Shown: piece after piece, positions 600 through 64,000 of the stretch
Position numbering within the stretch: position 1 is the stretch's first letter
How the letters are laid out: every line of letters starts with the position of its first letter
Assembly (NCBI RefSeq): GCF_036321535.1
Contig: NC_087472.1
Location: forward strand, 90,770,001 to 90,834,000
From: Camelus dromedarius
Lineage: Eukaryota
DNA length: 64,000 nt
Direction: 5' to 3'
The notes under the pieces: generated by a model
What the model saw: the letters and a program-made list of their open reading frames with translations, nothing else
The model's database searches: none
Told to the model about the DNA's origin: nothing
Position numbers and translations under genes: made by a program

Positions 600-2480
600 G
601 GGTACTTTCCAACACAGGTGCTTAATAGCAGATATACGCTGTGAAACAAGCACCAAAAGACATAACCACTTTAATATTGCTTCATGGAGTCATGGTCACA
701 GTCAGAACTGCCATCTCTTCACCCAGTGTGTTTGATAGATTGGCCAGCTGTCCTGCTCACTTCTTGGCTCTTTAAAAGGGCATCTGAGTCATAGCTAAGG
801 GAGCATTTTATTCTCTTATTTTGAGCCTCTTTCTAGGCACCAGCATTATGTTAGATTTTCCCTTTTTAACACCCATTTGGTGGCTTTCTTCCCTTCAGTA
901 ACAATCTTATCTTTCTTCCTTACTGTTAAATTTTAATCCAAACTTTCTCCCTCAACACAAAGTATGTCCCCTGGGTTCAGCCACTGGACTAGTCCATGTT
1001 TACCTGATAGCAAGACAAGACCTGCCTGGGCGTCCCCTTCAGTCTTGTCCCAATTTCTGATAAGGGGTCACATTGGTTCCATACAGAAAAATGGGGTTAT
1101 CCTGTCCACTAGGCAATAAAACATTTGTGACACTGAGCCCCAATTAGGCAAGGTGTGGGGAAGGGGGAATCCATTCCATCAATCCCTGCGGAATTCTTGC
1201 ACTTACCTTCCAACTGAGAGCCATACTGTGTTTGAGAATGTTACCAGCCTTTGATTAATTGTAGTCCTAGTCCAGGGACTACTAGTATGGCATGGAAAAA
1301 GAAAATTGTGGTGAAATAGGAACACCTGTAAGTTCCCCACTTGAATTATCTTTTTCAGCCTAATTGGTCTCACAGGTGCAGCGCATTTATCAAAGGCGCT
1401 AGTTGCCCAGGTTCCTTTCTTGGAACTCCACCTGCAGGCCAGAGAGGGTGACGCTCAATGGAAGGAGATTCTGAACTTAAATTTGAGTTTTTGCTCTGCA
1501 ACCAAGGAATTGAATTTTTAGCAGACTTACCATCAGCTTGCTGTCCTCTTAAAATCCATTCTTTTAGCTCCTAGAGTTTAGGTTCCACCGTTTCCAGATT
1601 CCATCAGAAAGTTTCAAAGCCTATGCTACTTCAAACCAAGGGTAGGTTGGCAGCCAGCATCAATGGTTCCTTTCCATTCCTTTTATCAGAATCATCTGTT
1701 TTCCTTTTCAAATAATGCCTTGCCCATATTTTCAGCTAAGAATGAATTTGGGTCTTCTAAACAATCTCAAGTCTGGCACTAATTGCTCTGGGGTGTGACA
1801 GTTAAGCTCAACAGCTGATGAGGACTCACAGAACTCAAATGACAGTTTACTACTGTAGAAAGGAAAAGCTTACGGTATACCAACAACATTAAAATAAGAA
1901 TATGCATCACAACCACAGGCTGCTTCCCAGCAGAGGGTCTGGAGAGGCCAAGTACAAGCTCCAAGCACCCCCTCTCTATCAGGACCAAACCAGGGTGCAA
2001 TTTCTCTCTTAGATCAAGAACCACCAAGGTGAGCACACACCACTTTAGAAACCAGGGAGCACGAATGGAAGTCTCAGCCAGGATTGCTTACAGCCTGCTG
2101 GTAACCTGGGCATATTCTTCCTAAGTAGCCAGTCCCAAACCCAGTGGCTTCCGTGGTCCTCACCGAGAGCAGGTAAAAATGGCCAGTGTTACTGGCTAGC
2201 AGTAAACAATTGTGATAACCTGTAACCCGTGGCTACCCATCAACACAATGAGTCACTTCTTTTCATTGCTTTGATCAAGGCTTTCCATTGTGTAGCTGTT
2301 TTGGCAAAACATCTCATGCCAGCTTCAGAGCCTCTGGAATTAACCCTCACAGCAAAGATAGCTGCATCAAAGTGCATTGACTTTGTTGGTGGGCAAAGAT
2401 TTGCTTGGAAAGTGCTTCAGCCTGAAGTGTAAGCTGCCTATAGAATGATGTTATACCCACAGCAGCCTCCTCTTCCCACA
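600..2480. mobile_element. Degraded LTR/ERV remnant (MER21/MER77-like LTR around 1780-2480, possible internal sequence upstream)
   Basis: The motif ggactcacagaactc and the following segment resemble ERVL-class LTRs as recalled. No intact ORF; boundaries approximate. Confidence 0.35.
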
Positions 2481-4146
2481 GACACCTGCTGCCTGGGCAG
2501 AAAAGTCAGCAGACACATAGCAGTTATCCCACCATTACCCACCCACCCCTGTCTCTGTCTGTACGAATTATCTTACAGAACTGTTTATACGTTAACACGG
2601 AGCATCCAGGTTGACTAATGGGATGAGCCCTAGGCTTTGTGGGCACCATCGGACTTACTTAAACAACTTTTTGCTGCTGCTTTTTTCTCCCGGTATTATC
2701 ACTAGTAGAGAATGCCGAGTGGTTTTCTTTTTCTCTAAAGGACTCCTGCCGCCCACCTTTCTGCTTTTCAGCGTGTACCTCCATGTGTCCCGCCATAATA
2801 CCGAGAGCAAGTCTCTGCCTTCCCGGTCTCAGTTTTCCCAGCTGCAAAATTATTCTAAATGTGCTTTCTGGTTCTCACTAGGATTCTGTAAAAGACAAGA
2901 AAAAAAAAAAAAACCTGCCTCAGCTCCTCACTTGTGGTATGTGTAGAAAGGATAGAATTAGCATTTGAACCTAGAATGTCGAGAGGCTCACCGGGCACAA
3001 CCAGCACCTTGGGTACCGCTAATGGGATCCTGTGCTTGACAGCCCCACCCCCACCCCACTTCACCCCGTTTCCTTCATGTTCTGCTTTTCCTGCACAGCA
3101 GCAGGGGTCCTGGAAAGCTGGTCATTTTTCTCTAGTCCCCACCCTCTCGTACCCCCACAGCCCCGATGCATGAGGGGTACCACCCAGTGGTCCCTGTTCT
3201 TCAGTGGCGTCAAAACCTACAGCATCCTCTACTGTCAAAATAACCTTTGAAGAGAGGGTATATTAGAACATACTCAGGTTTTTATATAGCTTTAAAATAT
3301 ATTCCCTAGTGAGTACACTCAAGGAGATACATTTTTCCTCTAATGGAAATTCCTAGCTTGAGGTAAAAGGATCATTTTACGAAATTGTGTCTGCTGGTTG
3401 CTTGTTGAAGCTTCTAGAAACAGCTAATCATTTTGTTTACTGTTTCATCGAAAAATCTCAATGTATTCTTTAAGATGCTCATTTTGAACAGTAAAGTGTA
3501 TGTTTGTGCGACAATTAAATTGTCCTGATCGATCTTCTCACCTCTTTTCAAGTCCATAGTGTCGGTTATATACATCTAAATAGGAGTCTTTTTAAAATTG
3601 TTTCATGAAGGCGGGATTTTGTTTGATATGTTTGTTTTGGGAAATGTGTTCTCCAGTCTAATGTGATGGATCGTTCTTCTGTTTAAGCATGTCCAGTTTT
3701 AGCAAAGCACACTGCACAATATTTCTCTGCTAACGATGTCATCTCCTACTCCTGCTATTTCCGAGCAATTGCTGTGCTCCCCTCTGGAGCTATTTATGCT
3801 CCCAATTTCCTATTCTGTGTGTTACCATTTACCTGTACAGAGAGAAGAGTAGACTCGATCAAAAGAAATTCGTGCCGTTTGGCTGTTGGTTATTTGTTTC
3901 CGTCACACAGGGAAATTAGACTCTTAATACAACAGTGAGTCTAAAAATTCTCACTTGTTCTTACATCCTTGGCTATAAAGCAAAATATGTGTAATGATTA
4001 AGGCGGAGTACCAAAAAAGAAAATAATAGAAAAACTTCAAAACACGCATAGCTTCCTTCAATATATAAAGAAACATGTTGAGAATATTGGTAGTTGGAGG
4101 GAATCCATTCCTCTCTCCTACTCATGGAAATGGTTTGCTGCATTTC

Positions 4147-10440: not shown

Positions 10441-10710
<270 letters not shown>

Positions 10711-29064: not shown

Positions 29065-29313
<249 letters not shown>

Positions 29314-31581: not shown

Positions 31582-31752
<171 letters not shown>

Positions 31753-42324: not shown

Positions 42325-42483
42325 AGATGATGAACATTTGTTAATCCAGCATTACTGCCAAAGTTTGAACCAGGACTCCCCCCTGAGCCAGCCTCGTAGT
42401 CCTGCCCAGATCTTGATTTCCTTAGAGAGTGAGGAAAGAGGGGAGCTAGAGAGAATCCTAGCAGATCTTGAGGAAGAAAACAG
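42325..42483 (+). CDS. DMD: Dystrophin exon 74 (159 bp), syntrophin-binding region and start of coiled coil
   Basis: tttccag|AGATGATG...AAACAG|gtgagt. Encodes [53 protein letters not shown]. Exon 75 was not found in the window, so the remainder is intron 74. Confidence 0.97.
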
Positions 42484-54728: not shown

Positions 54729-57700
54729 TTCTGTCAAGCTCAATACGTCTTTCTTTTGGTAAGAAGCTTTCAGCACACCCGAGATTCCAAATCTAAGAAG
54801 TACAGAATATATAGAGAAAGAAGTCATAACAATTATGAACGCTTAGAGCGGGCTGGGCCTGGTTCTCACCAAGTTGTTCGTGTGGAATACAGAGCACAGT
54901 GGCTCACCGATCCTACTGATGGGATGAGTGTGGAAGTCGGTTGTCTGGCTTCAGCAAGTGACAGAGCCTAGCTGTCAGTCAAGGTCTTTCTGACTCCAAA
55001 ACCATGCTCTCAAACCCTATTCTAATTATCGCCTCAGCCATGGGTGGTAGAAGGCACCAAAAGGGCAGTGTGCCAAAAAGAAATTCTTAATTTTTCTGTA
55101 CATGCTTCAGCATCACCTTTAAAGCGCAGATATCACTGGAAGAAATGGTACATTATTATAAAATCCCAGTAAGGTTTATTCAGTAGGAAAGGGGTTGGAA
55201 ATAAAGAGCTCGGAATGCATTAAAAGAGGACAATATTAAGAGACAAGGATTAGAGACAGGAGCCTGGGGGTTCCTGCCATTTTTTACTATTTTGCTTAAG
55301 GCAGACCTAAAATATGCATACTTTTACTTCCCACCCTGTGAGCATCTCCTTAATTAACAATGGGAGTGCCAAGGCATATTAATGTCTCTTTCCATCTAGT
55401 TTAGGGGTATTTTTGACTGTGTTAGATACAATTTTACAGTATTGCTTTAAATATTTTAATTATAATTGGAAAAGGCGCTGTGCAATTTCCAGTTTTTTAA
55501 ATACCTCATGCTTGTGGAATTTGTCTTCCTCTTTTTTTTAGAAAGTGCTAATTTCCTAGATTTATAGTTGCTGTAATAGTTCTGTATGATTTACTACATT
55601 TGCCTGAATCCAGATTGGTGGATATGATTTAGCTGTTTTTAATACTGTATCAGGCTAAAGCTGGATTTCTCTGGGTCTCATCTTTTTAGATGCAAACCTT
55701 TGTAGTTGTTCCCACTTTATGAAATAGATCCTGTGTGCGTGTTCATGCTTTAATATACAGTTTAATACATAAGACTATTAAGAAGACCTTGATCACTGGA
55801 AAGTGATCCTCATACAACTATATAATTACATGCAGTAGGGACGTTTCATTAAAAGAGTAGAAAACCTACAATGAAAACACATGACATCTGTAAATTAAGA
55901 GGATTACAGAAAGATTGAAGTAATGTTCTTTATTATAGCTAGCATGTAGGTAGTTGTGACTACTGGCCGGGCCAGATGCTGTCATGTTTTCAGCAGGTAG
56001 AGGTAAGGCCAATTTGAGTCATCTCTTATATCCATTAGCTAGTTGAGAAAGATGAGCGTAACTTTGTATCTGGACAACCACGCTTATACGTGTGATGACA
56101 CAAAATGAATCAGATAGAGCTACATAGTTGTAGAATGGAGGGATTTTTGTAAGCTCTATGGAGAATAACAAATTAATAATGAATGGGAGACTTCTTCTTT
56201 AGCAAGAGTGGTTACAGGAAGAAATTGTGGCGGCAGACGCCATGTGAAGTGAATTTGAATTAGTGTTCTTTAGGGAGCTACCAGAGAAATATGATTTACA
56301 AGATAATCAAGGACATAAATATATTCTCCGTGGAGTAATTGTCTGATCCCTGACATATATTCCTGTGTATTGATATGACTCCACAAATACATTCCAACAG
56401 TTAGAGAATCAACAGGGGTGAAATGTACATGTGTAACTTCAAGAATAGCAAAATATATATTGGTAGCAATATAAATTGACAGCCGACTGTTATAATGAGC
56501 AGATTGTGCACTTGTGGTTAAGGTTTAAAACCACTCACCTTGGAACAGTGTTAAGTATCTCACTGATCTTTTGTGGGAATGATATCCCCTATGTGCTTTA
56601 TAAATATTGCATCCCAAAAAACTAGCATTATGATATACTTGAAAAGGTCTTGACATAGATGTTTTTAAATATAAGGAGACAACTTAATTCATAAGGGCTA
56701 AATGGCTTCGTTTTGTAACCCCTAACACAGCTCTATAACGATGACCACATGTATTAGGAAATGTTTAGTAAACGTTATCTCTAGTTCAACCCTTTGAACA
56801 TTCATTTTTCTTGATAATCTTCATGAAAATTTATAAATACCTGTAAAAGAGAATTTAGACTTAAAGAACTTTGTATTTTACTTGGTTTCTGGCCGAGATA
56901 TTTCTTTTGTGCTATTTCTGGTGCTATTTCTGGCTTTTCAGACCTTTAACCTAACAGCTTGTCCCACCTGAGAGCTTCAGGAGGAAAAACTAGTTCCTCA
57001 AAATCAAGTTGGTTATTGAGCATAATAGAAAGTGTATGTTTGTCACATATTTGTTTAGGAAACGGCACTTGTTTGGCTCATTGAACCCTGTTTTGGTAAA
57101 TTGAGATTTGAATGAGTACTAAGGGAACCTTGACCAGACATCTACATAATCAACATGTCCTGGTAGGCTTCTGATGAAGATACCGTTAGTTTTCAATTTA
57201 AGGCATCTTCTTCTGCTTCTGCCGTTTATCCAGTAGTATGTAATATATGGAGTGGAAAAAAAATGAGAACACCACAGCTGAGCTGCAAAACAAGATGAAC
57301 ATCTCTGTGGGCCAGAAACGGGGAGGTATGGCCAACAGGACAGGGTGAGCAGTGTGTGGGGCTACCTTGGTGGACTGTCAACTCCTGCTCTAGTAACAGG
57401 GATTAAATTCTTCTCACCAGGTGGGGACACAGAGCCAGGAATTTGAAATCAGGGCCCCACAAAAACACATCTGGAGAGACACATACTAACCCACTTATAC
57501 TTGAAAGGAAAATGAAAAAAAAAAAACAATTTGGACTGTGGCAGGGGACTACAGCTCATGTGTAGCCATGGACCTAATGAGTAGAGCCTGGAAAAGAAGT
57601 GAAGAGTGTGGTGGTTGAGAAGGGGAGCATCACAGCCTTGAAACAAGCAGCTGAACCACGCTGCCTGGAGATGAAATTAGCAGTCAGTGCCTTCGTATCG

Positions 57701-57853
57701 CTCAATGCAGGAGCTGCAAATTACCAAGATAAGACGTAGCTCCAGACTAGAGGCCCTGCTCCGAGTGGGAACAGCCATAAAAGCACTTGACAGAAGCAAG
57801 TTCAGAAGGAGAGGGAAACAGGAAACACACCCTATCCCTTTCAGAATGTGCCT

Positions 57854-57985
57854 GAGGGAGGGAGGGAAGAGGCGAGGAAGAAAGAAAGGAAAGAGGGAGG
57901 GAGGGAGGGAGGGAGGAGGCGAGGAAGGAAGAAAGGAGGGAGGGAGGGAGGGAGGGAGAAAGGAGGGAGGAAGGGAAGAGGCGAT
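57854..57985 (+). repeat. Purine-rich (GGAG/GGAA)n low-complexity tract with three GAGGCGA motifs
   Basis: Directly visible. Confidence 0.9.
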
Positions 57986-57990
57986 CGCCT

Positions 57991-60886
57991 GCCTCTCTGC
58001 CTCTCTGCCTCTCTGCCTCTCTGCCTCTCTGCCTCTCTGCCTCTCTGCCTCTCTGCCTCTCTGCCTCTCTGCCTCTCTGCCTCTCTGCCTCTCTGCCTCT
58101 CTGCCTCTCTGCCTCTCTGCCTCTCTGCCTCTCTGCCTCTCTGCCTCTCTGCCTCTCTGCCTCTCTGCCTCTCTGCCTCTCTGCCTCTCTGCCTCTCTGC
58201 CTCTCTGCCTCTCTGCCTCTCTGCCTCTCTGCCTCTCTGCCTCTCTGCCTCTCTGCCTCTCTGCCTCTCTGCCTCTCTGCCTCTCTGCCTCTCTGCCTCT
58301 CTGCCTCTCTGCCTCTCTGCCTCTCTGCCTCTCTGCCTCTCTGCCTCTCTGCCTCTCTGCCTCTCTGCCTCTCTGCCTCTCTGCCTCTCTGCCTCTCTGC
58401 CTCTCTGCCTCTCTGCCTCTCTGCCTCTCTGCCTCTCTGCCTCTCTGCCTCTCTGCCTCTCTGCCTCTCTGCCTCTCTGCCTCTCTGCCTCTCTGCCTCT
58501 CTGCCTCTCTGCCTCTCTGCCTCTCTGCCTCTCTGCCTCTCTGCCTCTCTGCCTCTCTGCCTCTCTGCCTCTCTGCCTCTCTGCCTCTCTGCCTCTCTGC
58601 CTCTCTGCCTCTCTGCCTCTCTGCCTCTCTGCCTCTCTGCCTCTCTGCCTCTCTGCCTCTCTGCCTCTCTGCCTCTCTGCCTCTCTGCCTCTCTGCCTCT
58701 CTGCCTCTCTGCCTCTCTGCCTCTCTGCCTCTCTGCCTCTCTGCCTCTCTGCCTCTCTGCCTCTCTGCCTCTCTGCCTCTCTGCCTCTCTGCCTCTCTGC
58801 CTCTCTGCCTCTCTGCCTCTCTGCCTCTCTGCCTCTCTGCCTCTCTGCCTCTCTGCCTCTCTGCCTCTCTGCCTCTCTGCCTCTCTGCCTCTCTGCCTCT
58901 CTGCCTCTCTGCCTCTCTGCCTCTCTGCCTCTCTGCCTCTCTGCCTCTCTGCCTCTCTGCCTCTCTGCCTCTCTGCCTCTCTGCCTCTCTGCCTCTCTGC
59001 CTCTCTGCCTCTCTGCCTCTCTGCCTCTCTGCCTCTCTGCCTCTCTGCCTCTCTGCCTCTCTGCCTCTCTGCCTCTCTGCCTCTCTGCCTCTCTGCCTCT
59101 CTGCCTCTCTGCCTCTCTGCCTCTCTGCCTCTCTGCCTCTCTGCCTCTCTGCCTCTCTGCCTCTCTGCCTCTCTGCCTCTCTGCCTCTCTGCCTCTCTGC
59201 CTCTCTGCCTCTCTGCCTCTCTGCCTCTCTGCCTCTCTGCCTCTCTGCCTCTCTGCCTCTCTGCCTCTCTGCCTCTCTGCCTCTCTGCCTCTCTGCCTCT
59301 CTGCCTCTCTGCCTCTCTGCCTCTCTGCCTCTCTGCCTCTCTGCCTCTCTGCCTCTCTGCCTCTCTGCCTCTCTGCCTCTCTGCCTCTCTGCCTCTCTGC
59401 CTCTCTGCCTCTCTGCCTCTCTGCCTCTCTGCCTCTCTGCCTCTCTGCCTCTCTGCCTCTCTGCCTCTCTGCCTCTCTGCCTCTCTGCCTCTCTGCCTCT
59501 CTGCCTCTCTGCCTCTCTGCCTCTCTGCCTCTCTGCCTCTCTGCCTCTCTGCCTCTCTGCCTCTCTGCCTCTCTGCCTCTCTGCCTCTCTGCCTCTCTGC
59601 CTCTCTGCCTCTCTGCCTCTCTGCCTCTCTGCCTCTCTGCCTCTCTGCCTCTCTGCCTCTCTGCCTCTCTGCCTCTCTGCCTCTCTGCCTCTCTGCCTCT
59701 CTGCCTCTCTGCCTCTCTGCCTCTCTGCCTCTCTGCCTCTCTGCCTCTCTGCCTCTCTGCCTCTCTGCCTCTCTGCCTCTCTGCCTCTCTGCCTCTCTGC
59801 CTCTCTGCCTCTCTGCCTCTCTGCCTCTCTGCCTCTCTGCCTCTCTGCCTCTCTGCCTCTCTGCCTCTCTGCCTCTCTGCCTCTCTGCCTCTCTGCCTCT
59901 CTGCCTCTCTGCCTCTCTGCCTCTCTGCCTCTCTGCCTCTCTGCCTCTCTGCCTCTCTGCCTCTCTGCCTCTCTGCCTCTCTGCCTCTCTGCCTCTCTGC
60001 CTCTCTGCCTCTCTGCCTCTCTGCCTCTCTGCCTCTCTGCCTCTCTGCCTCTCTGCCTCTCTGCCTCTCTGCCTCTCTGCCTCTCTGCCTCTCTGCCTCT
60101 CTGCCTCTCTGCCTCTCTGCCTCTCTGCCTCTCTGCCTCTCTGCCTCTCTGCCTCTCTGCCTCTCTGCCTCTCTGCCTCTCTGCCTCTCTGCCTCTCTGC
60201 CTCTCTGCCTCTCTGCCTCTCTGCCTCTCTGCCTCTCTGCCTCTCTGCCTCTCTGCCTCTCTGCCTCTCTGCCTCTCTGCCTCTCTGCCTCTCTGCCTCT
60301 CTGCCTCTCTGCCTCTCTGCCTCTCTGCCTCTCTGCCTCTCTGCCTCTCTGCCTCTCTGCCTCTCTGCCTCTCTGCCTCTCTGCCTCTCTGCCTCTCTGC
60401 CTCTCTGCCTCTCTGCCTCTCTGCCTCTCTGCCTCTCTGCCTCTCTGCCTCTCTGCCTCTCTGCCTCTCTGCCTCTCTGCCTCTCTGCCTCTCTGCCTCT
60501 CTGCCTCTCTGCCTCTCTGCCTCTCTGCCTCTCTGCCTCTCTGCCTCTCTGCCTCTCTGCCTCTCTGCCTCTCTGCCTCTCTGCCTCTCTGCCTCTCTGC
60601 CTCTCTGCCTCTCTGCCTCTCTGCCTCTCTGCCTCTCTGCCTCTCTGCCTCTCTGCCTCTCTGCCTCTCTGCCTCTCTGCCTCTCTGCCTCTCTGCCTCT
60701 CTGCCTCTCTGCCTCTCTGCCTCTCTGCCTCTCTGCCTCTCTGCCTCTCTGCCTCTCTGCCTCTCTGCCTCTCTGCCTCTCTGCCTCTCTGCCTCTCTGC
60801 CTCTCTGCCTCTCTGCCTCTCTGCCTCTCTGCCTCTCTGCCTCTCTGCCTCTCTGCCTCTCTGCCTCTCTGCCTCTCTGCCTCTCT
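57991..60886 (+). repeat. (GCCTCTCT)n octamer tandem array, 362 units, 2896 bp
   Basis: The 8-bp period holds without visible variants; phase at 57991 and 60871 differs by exactly 360 units; partial GCCT units flank both ends. Confidence 0.97.
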
Positions 60887-60887
60887 G

Positions 60888-61189
60888 CCTGCCTCGAACC
60901 TACAACCTCCTGCTTACTAGTCCTAGCTCTCTACCCCTAACCTACAGGCTCTCACTAGCTACCTGAGTTTCCCCTCACTCACCTTTATCTCCTCAACTAA
61001 CAAACGGTGCTGAATTCCTAGTGCCTCAGCCTGGGTTGCACCTGAGGAACCAGGGACCCAGCATCCTCCTTCAGCTGTGGGAGATAAACCTGACTTGACT
61101 CGGGGAAACTGAGGTAGCTAGCGAGAGCCTGTAGCTCAGGGGCAGAGAGCATGGCTGGCAAGCAGGAGGTCCTAGGTTCAAGCCGCAGG
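60888..61189. other. ~300 bp imperfect inverted repeat (arms 60888-61029 and 61042-61189, 12-nt loop)
   Basis: Left arm gaacctacaacctcctgctt...ctacaggctctcactagctacctgagtttcccc...gtgcctcag aligns end to end with the reverse complement of the right arm gaacctaggacctcctgctt...ctacaggctctcgctagctacctcagtttcccc...gttcctcag. Confidence 0.92.
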
Positions 61190-61211
61190 GGAAGGACAGA
61201 GGAGAGTTTTT
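61132..61211 (+). promoter_or_regulatory. tRNA-Ala-like Pol III internal promoter (A box 61132-61142, B box 61175-61184) with TTTTT terminator 61207-61211
   Basis: TAGCTCAGGGG...GGTTCAAGCC. Ungapped 44/57 identity (hand count) to the head of the SINE at 4147-4243. Confidence 0.65.
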
Positions 61212-61559
61212 GCTGGAAGCAGAAAGCAAATTTCATTTTTACATGAGTGCAGTAAGTCCTACATACCTTCCTAAGTTGCTGTCTATACGTATGAACTTTC
61301 CCAAAAGGTCCCAATTAACTTATGGGCCTGATTTCCCCAACAGACTTCTCTGGACTTGATACACACTGATTCACCATTAGGATCAAAAGTTACATCTCAC
61401 CCATCCTTTTGCTCAGTCACAATGATCACAGGTAGACGGTTGGTGAATGCATAATTCTGGCCACTGTTTGACTTGACTTGCCATAATGCCACGTAGACCA
61501 GAACAGCCATCTGCTAGGTTTTCAGGTTGTAATTCTGCCCGTGGGTGTAGAGGTATGCC

Positions 61560-62415
61560 CGATAGTAATACCCAAAACACAAAGACTTAAGACAGTCCCT
61601 CCAAGTTGACTATCCAAAGTTGAATTAAGCCTAGATGAAAATAAAATGATAGAAGAATACAACCAAAATTGTAAGGATGTTTAAGATCCTCTAAGACATA
61701 CTTAAGGAAATACTATTTATTAAGATAACAAGAAATTAAGAAACAAAGCAATGAAGAACAGATGCATCTGAAAGCCATTTTTGGAAATAAGAACTATAAT
61801 CAGTGAAGCTACTGCACTCAAAGGACAAGATAAATTCTAGGCTGCACCCAGTCAAAGGAAATTAAAAGATGATTCTGAGGACTTTATATAATATTTAAAA
61901 AAACAGATAAACAGAAATCGGTAATAAAGAAAAATGGGGGAGTGACCACAAGGCTTGAAAATATACCTGGTAGAAGTTTCAGAAGAAGAGAATGGAGATG
62001 CAGAGAAGCAGTATGTGAAGCTGTAAGAGCTGAGAATCTTCCAGAACTGGAGTGATGTGAGCCTTTAAGGAAATGGTCTCCAGAGAGAAATTTTAAACAT
62101 CTGGGAAGGCCTGTGTAGAGCAATTGGTATTCTTTACAACTCAGCTTTGGGAAGCCCTGGCTGAGTTCAAATGTTATATTTTTCACAGGAAAACATAACA
62201 GAAATGCAGTGTGTTGTATATGCTTAAACCGTGGTTTCTAAACAAGGACACTTAGAAATAACTCAGTAAAGGAGAGCTGTGTGGAAGAACCTGACCCAGA
62301 GGAAGACCTCTCTAGAAAAGGTAGTCTCCTGTCAGTGACCCTGTGAAAAGCAGGCAGGAAGACAATAATCATTTGTTGTACTATCCTGAAGTCCATGTCT
62401 AAAGACACCGTTTTC

Positions 62416-62449
<34 letters not shown>

Positions 62450-64000
62450 CAGCTTTCAAAAAGGATTTCGTGGGTGACCCGATCTGATAGAAGAATTCTG
62501 AAGAGGAGTCCATAAAAAGATGTCATCAGTTGGGATATTTCAGTGAAGGTGGATTTCTTATAGTCAATACTTCAATGGAAAAAAAGTAAAAGATAATTCC
62601 TATCAAATGAAACCTTGTGAACACTGGATGCTGCTTCAGATTCATGACAACATTTAGGTAATTATCATTTAAATGGTCAGAAATGGGATGTAATTAATGT
62701 GAACAACTACGTACACTGGTTCACACCCAGAGGACCGATGTGCAGAATCTGGCCAAGGGAAAACTTATTTTGATAAATTTCTTATTACTGCTTTGTCAAC
62801 GCAGATTGCTGTGAAACAAACTGCACATATAACTCTCCTTGAAGATTGATAGCAAGTAGGATTTTAATCAATACAGATAGGAGATTACATTTCCTGTAAA
62901 TGGAAAAGATCATAGATTTTCCTGCATGACTTTAAACAAATTCCTAGAAAACTTGTAACGTTAGGTACAGGGTAGAGCTTTAAACAAACAAAAGACAGCA
63001 CAGATTGGATTGAAATAAAATCTTCCATGTAGAGAGTGACCATTTTAAAACTGGGCATCTTGGAAGACAAGCCATCCCCTGCGGAACGTTCATTCCAGGT
63101 ACGAAACAACAGAAGATCCCATGTCACTAACAGGAAACCTGGTTATGAGACTGTCTTCCTTTCTCAAACTGGACAATGGGAAAACCCTTCTTGCCGACCC
63201 ACCACTTGCGTCGCATGTCTTTTCTTGTAGATAGAGATCTCCCACATTTGTGGATAGGACATTCTCTCACCTGATAAAATGTCATCTGTGAAGAACAGAA
63301 ATCTTTCCTCTTATTTTGGTACTTATCATAACTAGAAGAAACATATCAAGAGTTCTAATCAGTCACTGGGTATCAAAAGACAGAAGTGTCCTTAATCGGA
63401 AATGCATTCTCAGCAATTCTAAAGCAAGAAGGAAATCTATAACCCTAAATGTACTTATTAAGAAGCATAAAAAGAAAAAAGAAATGACTTAAGCATTCAA
63501 ACTGAAAAGCTAGAGGAAAATCCACAGTAAGTTACAGAACATTAACGGACATACAAGGAGACTAGAATAACTGAAGAGCTTCACCACGTTCCTGGATGTG
63601 AAGACTCAATAACACGAAGTCAGTTCTTCCCAGTTTAATTTATACATTCAATGTGATTCAAGCACCAGATTTCAACAAGGATTCTCATGAAATAGGAAAT
63701 TTTGACACTAAAATCATAGGCATAATCAGATAGATCTGAAGAGCCAAGACAATTTGGAGGCAGAACAAGTGGGACTGAGAGGGCCTGCCAGACAGCAGTG
63801 TATTTAAATACATAGTGTGGAATCTGCACAGGGACACAGATAAACAAGCAGAAGAGAATTGCTCAGAAGCACACTAGTGTACTTCTGGATGCTGGATGTA
63901 TTGTAGAAATACCATAGAAATCAGTGGGGGAAAGGTGGACTATACAATTAAATGGGCTAGCTTAGGAAGTTATCTTTGTGCGGGGGGTAAAATAAGGTTT
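61560..64000 (+). mobile_element. Degraded old L1 fragments (ORF1-like ~61600-62090, ORF2-like ~63000-64000)
   Basis: A-rich with agctgagaatcttccagaact, aatttatacattcaatg.gatt and atcagtgggggaaaggtggactatacaattaaatgg L1 motifs; interrupted, no ORF. Confidence 0.6.

Follow-up and report, generated by a model that had tools for sequence, protein, structure and literature searches.

A candidate low-copy interspersed repeat bearing long octamer arrays in the dromedary genome

A stretch of 64,000 nucleotides from Camelus dromedarius (assembly GCF_036321535.1, contig NC_087472.1, positions 90,770,001 to 90,834,000; hereafter the window) was analyzed, where a block of ~3.7 kb extends from position 57854 to ~61575. 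The block consists of a purine-rich minisatellite, a 12-bp palindrome, a perfect array of an octamer, a hairpin formed by two inverted arms derived from a short interspersed element (SINE), and a non-coding body. It is best read as a member of a small interspersed repeat family that is lineage-specific and of low copy number, and not as an active retroelement or an RNA device. In the explanation to which about an even chance is given here, the family is a low-copy duplicon, in which the polypyrimidine tract of a SINE tail undergoes hyper-expansion in place and forms one edge of insertions that arise by duplication at the DNA level. The window corresponds to C37:90770001-90834000 in an assembly of 2.3 Gb and 171 contigs, and other loci are named below by contig and position.

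Results

Linkage of octamer arrays to a SINE-derived arm

A genome search with the hairpin identified full-length copies at four further loci (91-94% identity), of which three are on C37 and one is on C10. Their (GCCTCTCT)n arrays are perfect, always lie on the same side, and comprise 523.8, 609.8, and 24.8 units in the C37 copies and 328.6 units in the C10 copy. At C3:91.02M, a sixth array (199 copies) adjoins only one arm, with the same body after it, and so an array can occur without the hairpin. When six consecutive units of GCCTCTCT were searched for exactly, 893 forward and 1122 reverse positions were returned. Because the total of 2015 positions equals the sum over the six arrays, all six (GCCTCTCT)n arrays in the genome are linked to an arm, at the same arm end. 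An earlier note, made from the letters of the window, had suggested a composite element and had named the hairpin-array linkage at other loci as a point to check; both the multi-copy nature of the unit and the linkage were supported by these searches. The C37 and C10 copies could be aligned over 3.6-4.4 kb at ~91% identity, while the shorter copies spanned 461-680 bp. From the end of the array in the window, 680-690 bp were homologous to three other loci at 88-91%.

Besides these copies, 11 more divergent and older arm loci were inspected, one of which was the C3:91.02M copy again. Perfect arrays were found at the same arm end in eight of the 11, extending at least 1.4 kb to the edge of the examined sequence; the unit was CCTACTCT at seven of these loci and the 10-mer CCTACTCTCT at one. 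Two others had short CT-rich seeds only. Hence, the linkage extends to a sister set with a different octamer at the same arm end, and at several sister loci a short (CCTG)n stretch separates the array from the arm. The order of parts was the same at every locus examined.

The arrays of three sister loci were followed further outward. At C10:26.0M, 279 units are preceded by a 46-mer purine minisatellite (36.6 units, 99%), and the junction of minisatellite and array is a palindrome, GGAGTACTCC, which by eye is analogous to the AGGCGATCGCCT of the window. The second locus has 202 units after a purine tract of ~50 nt, with degenerate octamers outside the tract, and the third has 410.8 units (98%) together with alternating (CTCTCCTA)n/(AAGA)n blocks. 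Genome-wide, CCTACTCT had 2784 six-unit positions, consistent with ~8-9 arrays, and its array-end pattern occurred at six sites. At C4:83584930-83584959, outside the arm matches, another end of a CCTACTCT array was seen whose junction is a variant (CCTAGCC); it may belong to an array with no recognizable arm.

The motif at the start of the arm occurred at 22 genome sites with at most one mismatch, and the rows read by eye follow pyrimidine-rich DNA. With at most two mismatches, 96 matches were obtained versus 356 for a reversed control; hence, only the 22 sites were counted. Overall, the family comprises roughly two dozen loci, ~15 of which have expanded arrays. A trio of copies on C3 is 98-99% identical over 2.4-3.1 kb. 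The arm-start motif is itself repeated as a minisatellite at C17:18723474-18723946 (CTCTCCTCTCTC-GGAATCGAACCTACAACCC), with at least eight copies at spacings of ~48-76 bp.

Palindromic junctions with purine minisatellites

The 21-mer palindrome junction GAGGCGATCGCCTGCCTCTCT was found at exactly three genome sites, namely the window, C37:100.25M, and C37:104.78M. The 47-mer minisatellite of the window was also present at C37:100.25M (~23 units) and C37:104.78M (97 units, 99% matches), and the unit consensuses of the three loci are related (z 5.7-10.2, with none of 200 shuffles reaching the score). The palindromes consist of an octamer meeting its own reverse complement exactly. The C10 hairpin copy (C10:33.39M) has a 54-mer purine minisatellite not demonstrably related to the 47-mer and no palindrome, and the copies at C3:91.02M and C37:101.65M are without a minisatellite. 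The longest arrays (97 x 47-mer plus 609.8 x 8-mer) belong to locus L004 (C37:104778972-104780400), which adjoins GC-rich exons resembling, by eye in translation, a proteolipid/GPM6B-type protein on the opposite strand.

Purity and age of the arrays

Private substitutions in the flank were counted over 457-670 aligned columns to the right of the array, and amounted to 27/670 (4.0%) in the window, 12/457 (2.6%) in the C37:104.78M copy, and 31/670 (4.6%) in the C10 copy. At these rates, static arrays of 2.6-4.9 kb were predicted to carry ~117-128 changes each, while Tandem Repeats Finder (TRF) reports none. Two C37 copies that are 98.5% identical over 3.6 kb differ in their arrays, with 523.8 versus 24.8 units. 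Because pure arrays lie beside diverged flanks and nearly identical copies differ so widely in array length, the arrays appear to be much younger than the loci, and would be either constantly homogenized or recently re-expanded, unless they are misreported by the assembly.

Purity was 98-100% at every array examined, whatever the age of the locus. The minisatellites adjoining the arrays vary in the ordinary way (82-99% matches) in the same assembly. The array at C10:10.18M includes variants and higher-order blocks (98%).

Edges of the copies

The homology to the right of the array ended at 461 bp in the C37:104.78M copy, at ~680 bp in the window, at 3.6 kb in the C37:100.25M copy, and at 4.3 kb in the C37:101.65M and C10 copies, while the left flanks of the copies had nothing in common. 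The repeat-side edge is thus fixed and the opposite edge variable. For example, two CCTACTCT copies on C3 share the same degenerate-octamer start within different flanks and have different right ends. At C3:62.25M, the body of a young copy breaks off after 866 nt, where an older family body that has no arm takes over at a non-allelic position, and the array at C37:101.65M is framed by two hairpins.

Neither edge of three bounded copies showed a poly(A), poly(T), or A-rich tail. The longest word shared between the two edges was 6 nt in the window copy (null P 0.27) and 4 nt in the C37:100.25M copy (P 0.97), both at chance level. For the window copy, the earlier note had likewise found no clear target-site duplication; at C37:104.78M a 9-nt direct repeat, CCCACAGCA, was found by eye near both edges. 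This repeat overlaps element-like sequence and looks like microhomology.

Overall, the family has the properties of a duplicon, with few copies, some of at least 1 kb at 90% identity or more, located within and between chromosomes and variable in their boundaries. The long form includes ~1.1 kb with 73-74% similarity to the units of two large tandem arrays on contig C8. These arrays, at C8:18358850-18590754 and C8:15524602-15738371, are in opposite orientation and have a period of ~11.9 kb, with at least 20 and at least nine units. Within each unit, a piece of ~1.1-1.2 kb corresponds to positions 2260-3375 of the long-form flank with 72-74% similarity.

Organization of the unit in the window

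The purine tract, palindrome, array, and hairpin described in the earlier note abut without a spacer, as established by TRF, regular expression, self-BLAST, and direct reading (Table 1). Its count of 362 octamers was reproduced exactly, and TRF placed the array at 57989-60890 (period 8, 362.8 copies, 100% matches, 0% indels); the length is that of the assembly, since short-read contigs cannot span any of the arrays. On the minus strand the array reads (AGAGAGGC)n and lies 3' of the tRNA-like head of the left arm, in which a B-box-like motif, GGTTCGAGG, was noted by eye. The right arm ends in a short purine-rich tail, GGGGAAGGACAGAGGAGAG, followed by TTTTT at 61207-61211, in the place where the left arm carries (GGCAGAGA)n. 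With its box-like motifs, this tail, and the TTTTT, the right arm looks like it retains the native end of a SINE-like unit.

Table 1. Features of the unit and of the surrounding gene (positions in the window).
Feature	Position	Strand	Evidence and remarks
Purine-rich, G-tract-rich minisatellite, left edge of the unit	57854-57978	+	TRF (57854-57979): period 47, 2.7 copies, 90% matches
12-bp palindrome AGGCGATCGCCT	57979-57990	.	Read directly; switch point from purine-rich to pyrimidine-rich strand
(GCCTCTCT)x362 perfect array	57991-60886	+	Regular expression: 362 exact contiguous copies
Left arm, including the GCCTGCCT junction	60887-61036	-	SINE-derived module; tRNA-like head sense on minus, running straight into the array
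Right arm, inverted copy of the arm, head sense on plus	61042-61211	+	A-box-like TAGCTCAGGGG, B-box-like GGTTCAAGCC (by eye)
Truncated non-coding body common to other copies	61190-61575	+	Right edge ~61571-61580; single-copy DNA beyond
Dystrophin C-terminal exons	~33234, 33998, 38454, 42341-42470 (~33.2, 34.0, 38.45, 42.3-42.5 kb)	+	Short motifs in translation

Contigs from four DNA runs of four studies were compared with the assembly. A 185-nt contig covering the hairpin core (60924-61108) was identical in all four runs, and a contig of ~947 nt bridged the right edge (61493-62400) in all four, with no loose ends. The junction of array and hairpin was covered in one of the four; the lack of contig cover at 60871-60921 and 61432-61482 in the same three runs reflects holes in short-read contigs and is not evidence.

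Hairpin, arms, and tRNA likeness

The 300-bp inverted repeat of the earlier note was borne out. In a self-BLAST of the hairpin (60887-61189), query positions 1-302 aligned to 61189-60888 with 74.0% identity over 311 columns (E 4.7e-41), the best ungapped piece being 49 nt at 90%. Folded as single-stranded DNA, the hairpin reached -86.2 kcal/mol versus -45.5 +/- 3.8 for shuffles (z -10.7), and none of 100 shuffles was as good. The arms, each of ~150 nt and forming no short stem, almost meet at the center (~61037-61041).

The note had further described both arms as tRNA-like heads, which was sustained only as a similarity to SINE heads and not as a tRNA call. A 57-nt stretch of the arm is 77% identical to window positions 4231-4175, a tRNA-like gene called by ARAGORN in a SINE head, and arm positions 233-302 were matched by 12 other genome sites at 81-88%. 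ARAGORN called no tRNA in either arm, and called two SINE heads elsewhere in the window. A search of 57000-62500 against Rfam gave no tRNA match at E<=1 and nothing in the hairpin. Its 23 matches were of microRNA type, all at 57866-58083 and all below the gathering score, and are taken as a composition effect of purine/pyrimidine complementarity.

A tree of the arms was built with 26 sequences. In it, the X-linked copies and the C37:112.28M/C38 copies had their right arms in one group, with a support of 82/81, below the star threshold of the tool, while the left arms fell elsewhere in the tree. Conservation of the left arm was 88.9-94% over its first 150 nt among the four other copies and 77-84% among older members, and the inverted second arm was missing from the array-bearing copy at C3:91.02M. 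Because the right arms group apart from the left arms and a single arm occurs at C3:91.02M, we read the hairpin as the probable product of one old inverted duplication of the arm. For annotation, the "hairpin" would accordingly be a by-product of that duplication and not a gene. Two of the grouped copies, L013 (C37:112278461-112281593) and L015 (C38:18505994-18509126), constitute a shared hairpin copy with (CTACTCTC)n that is 96.6% identical over 3.1 kb, which suggests an X-Y shared or pseudoautosomal-type region, with C37 being X-like.

Content of the body

None of 24 open reading frames (ORFs) had a Pfam match above the cut-offs, with three weak hits below them, and six further ORFs had no hits. 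Two candidates raised by eye were therefore dropped. One was an RPL10- or histone-like coding remnant on the minus strand of the body, for which Pfam found nothing above cut-offs among the 24 ORFs. The other was an L1 ORF1 fragment at the end of the body: positions 1830-1995 of locus L027 matched family loci only, and none of the six ORFs had a Pfam hit. The 800 bp beyond these positions matched many unrelated places in a local BLAST, as a common interspersed repeat would.

Discussion

Proposed origin and spread of the family

The ancestral unit, read on the plus strand, would consist of a polypyrimidine tract, an antisense SINE-derived arm with a tRNA-like head, and a non-coding body of at least 1.3 kb. 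The octamer array may have grown in place from the purine-rich tail after the SINE head, and continuing slippage or unequal exchange could keep it pure. The purine minisatellite and the palindrome might represent the remains of a fold-back (inverted) duplication of the tract, whose outer half then evolved into a minisatellite. New copies would arise through DNA-level duplicative insertion or recombination, with the unstable repeat tract serving as one breakpoint, much as proposed for the SVA-bearing core duplicons of apes. In dystrophin, the unit is likely a passenger that at most burdens the transcription or splicing of intron 74.

Several observations weigh against this explanation. Both octamer units are present in both clades of the arm tree, and therefore growth in place would be insufficient without exchange between loci or convergence. 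The fold-back step is proposed because of two palindromic junctions only, and the minisatellites are not all demonstrably related: the 54-mer of C10:33.39M and the 46-mer of C10:26.0M showed no relation to the 47-mer of the window above shuffles (z <= 0.5). The insertion mechanism is deduced from the boundaries of the copies, and a fixed repeat-side end with a variable far end is also, in the minus-strand reading, the classical signature of 5'-truncated non-LTR (long terminal repeat) retrocopies. The 9-nt direct repeat at C37:104.78M has a rough chance of ~0.005 per locus. Both the length and the purity of the arrays are taken from one assembly. In addition, the family may already be named in Dfam or Repbase; the octamer strings were not discussed in the open-access papers that were searched.

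Retrotransposition

The earlier note had proposed a retroelement, or an RNA unit that generates its own repeat tail. A non-autonomous retrotransposon is unlikely here. It could take the form of an SVA/LAVA-like composite on the plus strand, with a CT-rich repeat, an antisense SINE, and the body, or of a minus-strand element with a 3' tail of (AGAGAGGC)n that is reverse transcribed with variable 5' truncation. The order of parts does resemble the 5' end of SVA. The fixed repeat-side end with its four different body lengths, the discrete block that the window copy forms in unique DNA, the direct repeat with microhomology at C37:104.78M, and tail units that vary by subfamily also fit such an origin. 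In contrast, the three bounded copies lack a poly(A), poly(T), or A-rich tail, the direct repeats at two of the three boundaries are at chance level, and the 2.3 Gb assembly contains only ~22 arm sites. The longest copies are extended by a further 3-4 kb, of which ~1.1 kb is like the C8 arrays, and that part is unlike a defined element. Since the arrays are much more recent than the insertions, they did not simply persist unchanged from the time of insertion, as frozen tails would have. A self-made tail is likewise at odds with the copies themselves. Their homology reaches 0.16-4.3 kb upstream of the head (in head sense) and includes no A-rich tail; a transcript of a SINE made by RNA polymerase III would not contain sequence 5' of the tRNA-like head, so the unit is not a SINE of that kind.

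The analogy with SVA, also drawn in the earlier note, holds for the architecture and not for the sequence, which is not homologous. In both systems a CT-rich short tandem repeat adjoins antisense SINE-derived sequence, here at every array-bearing locus examined. Both also contain a G-rich minisatellite, are composites of older repeats, and vary in repeat length between copies. The repeat of the dromedary family is, however, an octamer and not CCCTCT. Its minisatellite is positioned beyond the CT repeat, with a palindrome as the link, whereas that of SVA separates the SINE from a 3' domain. At the five loci of the X family, no tandem repeat scoring at least 150 was reported rightward of the arm, where SVA would have its central variable number of tandem repeats (VNTR). 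A SINE-R or L1 3' domain and a poly(A) are also absent, two of the three edges lack a target-site duplication, and the family counts ~22 sites, not thousands, in a host that is not a hominoid. Membership in SVA/LAVA fails because of the VNTR position, the missing poly(A) and target-site duplications, and the copy number. According to PMC4432496 and PMC7353768, the VNTR composites are hominoid-specific.

A further possibility, more doubtful still, is a VNTR-composite mobile element outside primates. Its copying would begin at a constant end that bears the repeat and reach over variable lengths, with neither poly(A) nor regular target-site duplications, and its arrays would be continually renewed and possibly exchanged between loci. 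This idea is entertained because the same two octamers occur on both arm lineages and the arrays are pure at any locus age. If true, the repeat tract would act as the working part of a mechanism of copying as yet undescribed in mammals.

Assembly, RNA, and DNA transposon explanations

The unit could be real while the kb-scale length and perfect purity of its arrays are products of assembly or polishing, which is considered quite improbable. Such an origin would account for arrays that are equally pure at loci of any age and, given that short-read contigs fail to span them, for a junction with the hairpin covered in a single run. It fits poorly with array lengths that vary by locus (24.8 to 609.8 units) behind clean and conserved edges, and with neighboring minisatellites that keep ordinary variation in the same assembly. 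The variants and higher-order blocks at C10:10.18M likewise indicate that the assembler was not simply flattening the repeats.

The earlier note had also raised a structured-RNA system. A functional RNA or regulatory module, in which the hairpin gives rise to small RNAs or (GCCUCUCU)n acts as a sponge for polypyrimidine-tract-binding proteins, is very unlikely. The fold is strong, and because the dystrophin gene lies on the plus strand, its pre-mRNA would carry (GCCUCUCU)362, or 362 CUCUCU-containing units. RNA runs contain 33-65% of the sampled words of 60871-63870, a word sampling that makes no statement on expression; such intronic words are expected from any pre-mRNA. Against the module stand arms that are only 74% complementary and drifting, the lack of any Rfam match in the hairpin, and the absence of the hairpin from the array-bearing copy at C3:91.02M. 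The orientation to host genes also varies, the array being antisense to the GPM6B-like exon (by eye) at C37:104.78M.

A DNA transposon resembling a miniature inverted-repeat transposable element, with the 150-nt arms as terminal inverted repeats, is hardly credible: the long inverted repeat has almost no spacer and several copies, but the arms are internal to the unit, with homology reaching 0.16-4 kb past the right arm and with the array and minisatellite located outside the left arm, most family members have a single arm, and no target-site duplication flanks the hairpin.

Comparison with duplicons and repeat expansions

The low-copy duplicon explanation finds its closest parallels elsewhere, and by analogy the workings of the family would most resemble those of a small duplicon together with repeat expansions that start from SINE tails. 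Expansions in retroelement tails include the AAGGG repeat of RFC1 in an Alu tail, the SVA hexamer of XDP, and the GAA repeat of FXN in an Alu. As in these cases, a purine/pyrimidine motif lies beside SINE-derived sequence in hundreds of pure intronic units, and the purity implies a high turnover. The dromedary arrays differ in being apparently fixed (four of four animals, at the level of the flanks), parallel at ~15 paralogous loci, built of 8-10-nt units, and paired with an inverted purine minisatellite.

Simple-repeat tracts are also known next to other retroelements, as in the carnivore CAN-SINEs, which are tRNA-derived with a polypyrimidine tract, and in the 3' microsatellite tails of long interspersed elements (LINEs) and SINEs, such as the octamers of CR1 and the tail of UnaL2. 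The tract beside a tRNA-like head and the octamer tails of CR1-type LINEs are shared features. In contrast, the dromedary family has a purine-rich tail in the sense orientation of the head, sequence upstream of the head, and arrays two orders of magnitude longer, and no partner LINE is evident for it.

As for duplicons, SVA elements have been described, in PMC9132208, as breakpoints and recombination partners in moving a low-copy repeat, lcr16a, with circular intermediates. Like that core duplicon as presented there, the dromedary family is of low copy number, spread within and between chromosomes, and of variable extent, with a VNTR-bearing composite at its breakpoints and DNA-level recombination proposed. 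Its blocks are smaller (0.5-4.3 kb plus arrays) and carry no gene, and its mechanism is judged from boundaries.

The family offers ~15 paralogous loci in one mammalian genome at which the same SINE-derived junction bears 1.5-5 kb of 8-10-nt repeats in perfectly pure form, and several of these loci have a palindromic switch to a G-tract-rich minisatellite. It could serve as a natural replicated series on how SINE tails seed expansions, how purity is kept up, and whether such arrays possibly drive the duplicative transposition of neighboring DNA. The array tracts are likely hypervariable markers. Dystrophin and a GPM6B-like gene (the latter by eye), both X-linked, each have a copy in an intron, where long polypurine/polypyrimidine tracts could stall transcription, bind splicing factors, or break.

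Setting in the dystrophin gene

EF-hand_3 domains were identified by Pfam at window positions 10537-10701 and 29113-29211, and a ZZ-type ORF by translation at 31582-31752, all on the plus strand. Together with the C-terminal exons listed in Table 1, they are consistent with a location of the unit in a dystrophin intron, 3' of the exon ending in "...LEEENR"; the motifs of the next dystrophin exon were not found within the window. This intron is probably DMD intron 74, as the earlier note had it.

On either side of the unit, the left flank (57250-57853) and the right flank (61572-62200) are single copy in the genome. A perfect A31 run lies at 62417-62447, ~850 bp to the right. It was considered as the poly(A) of a larger insertion and rejected, as no matching direct repeat flanks 57854; because the DNA at 61572-62200 between run and unit is single copy, the run is taken as unrelated. 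A second X-linked gene with an EF-hand_3 domain was observed at C37:38.26 Mb.

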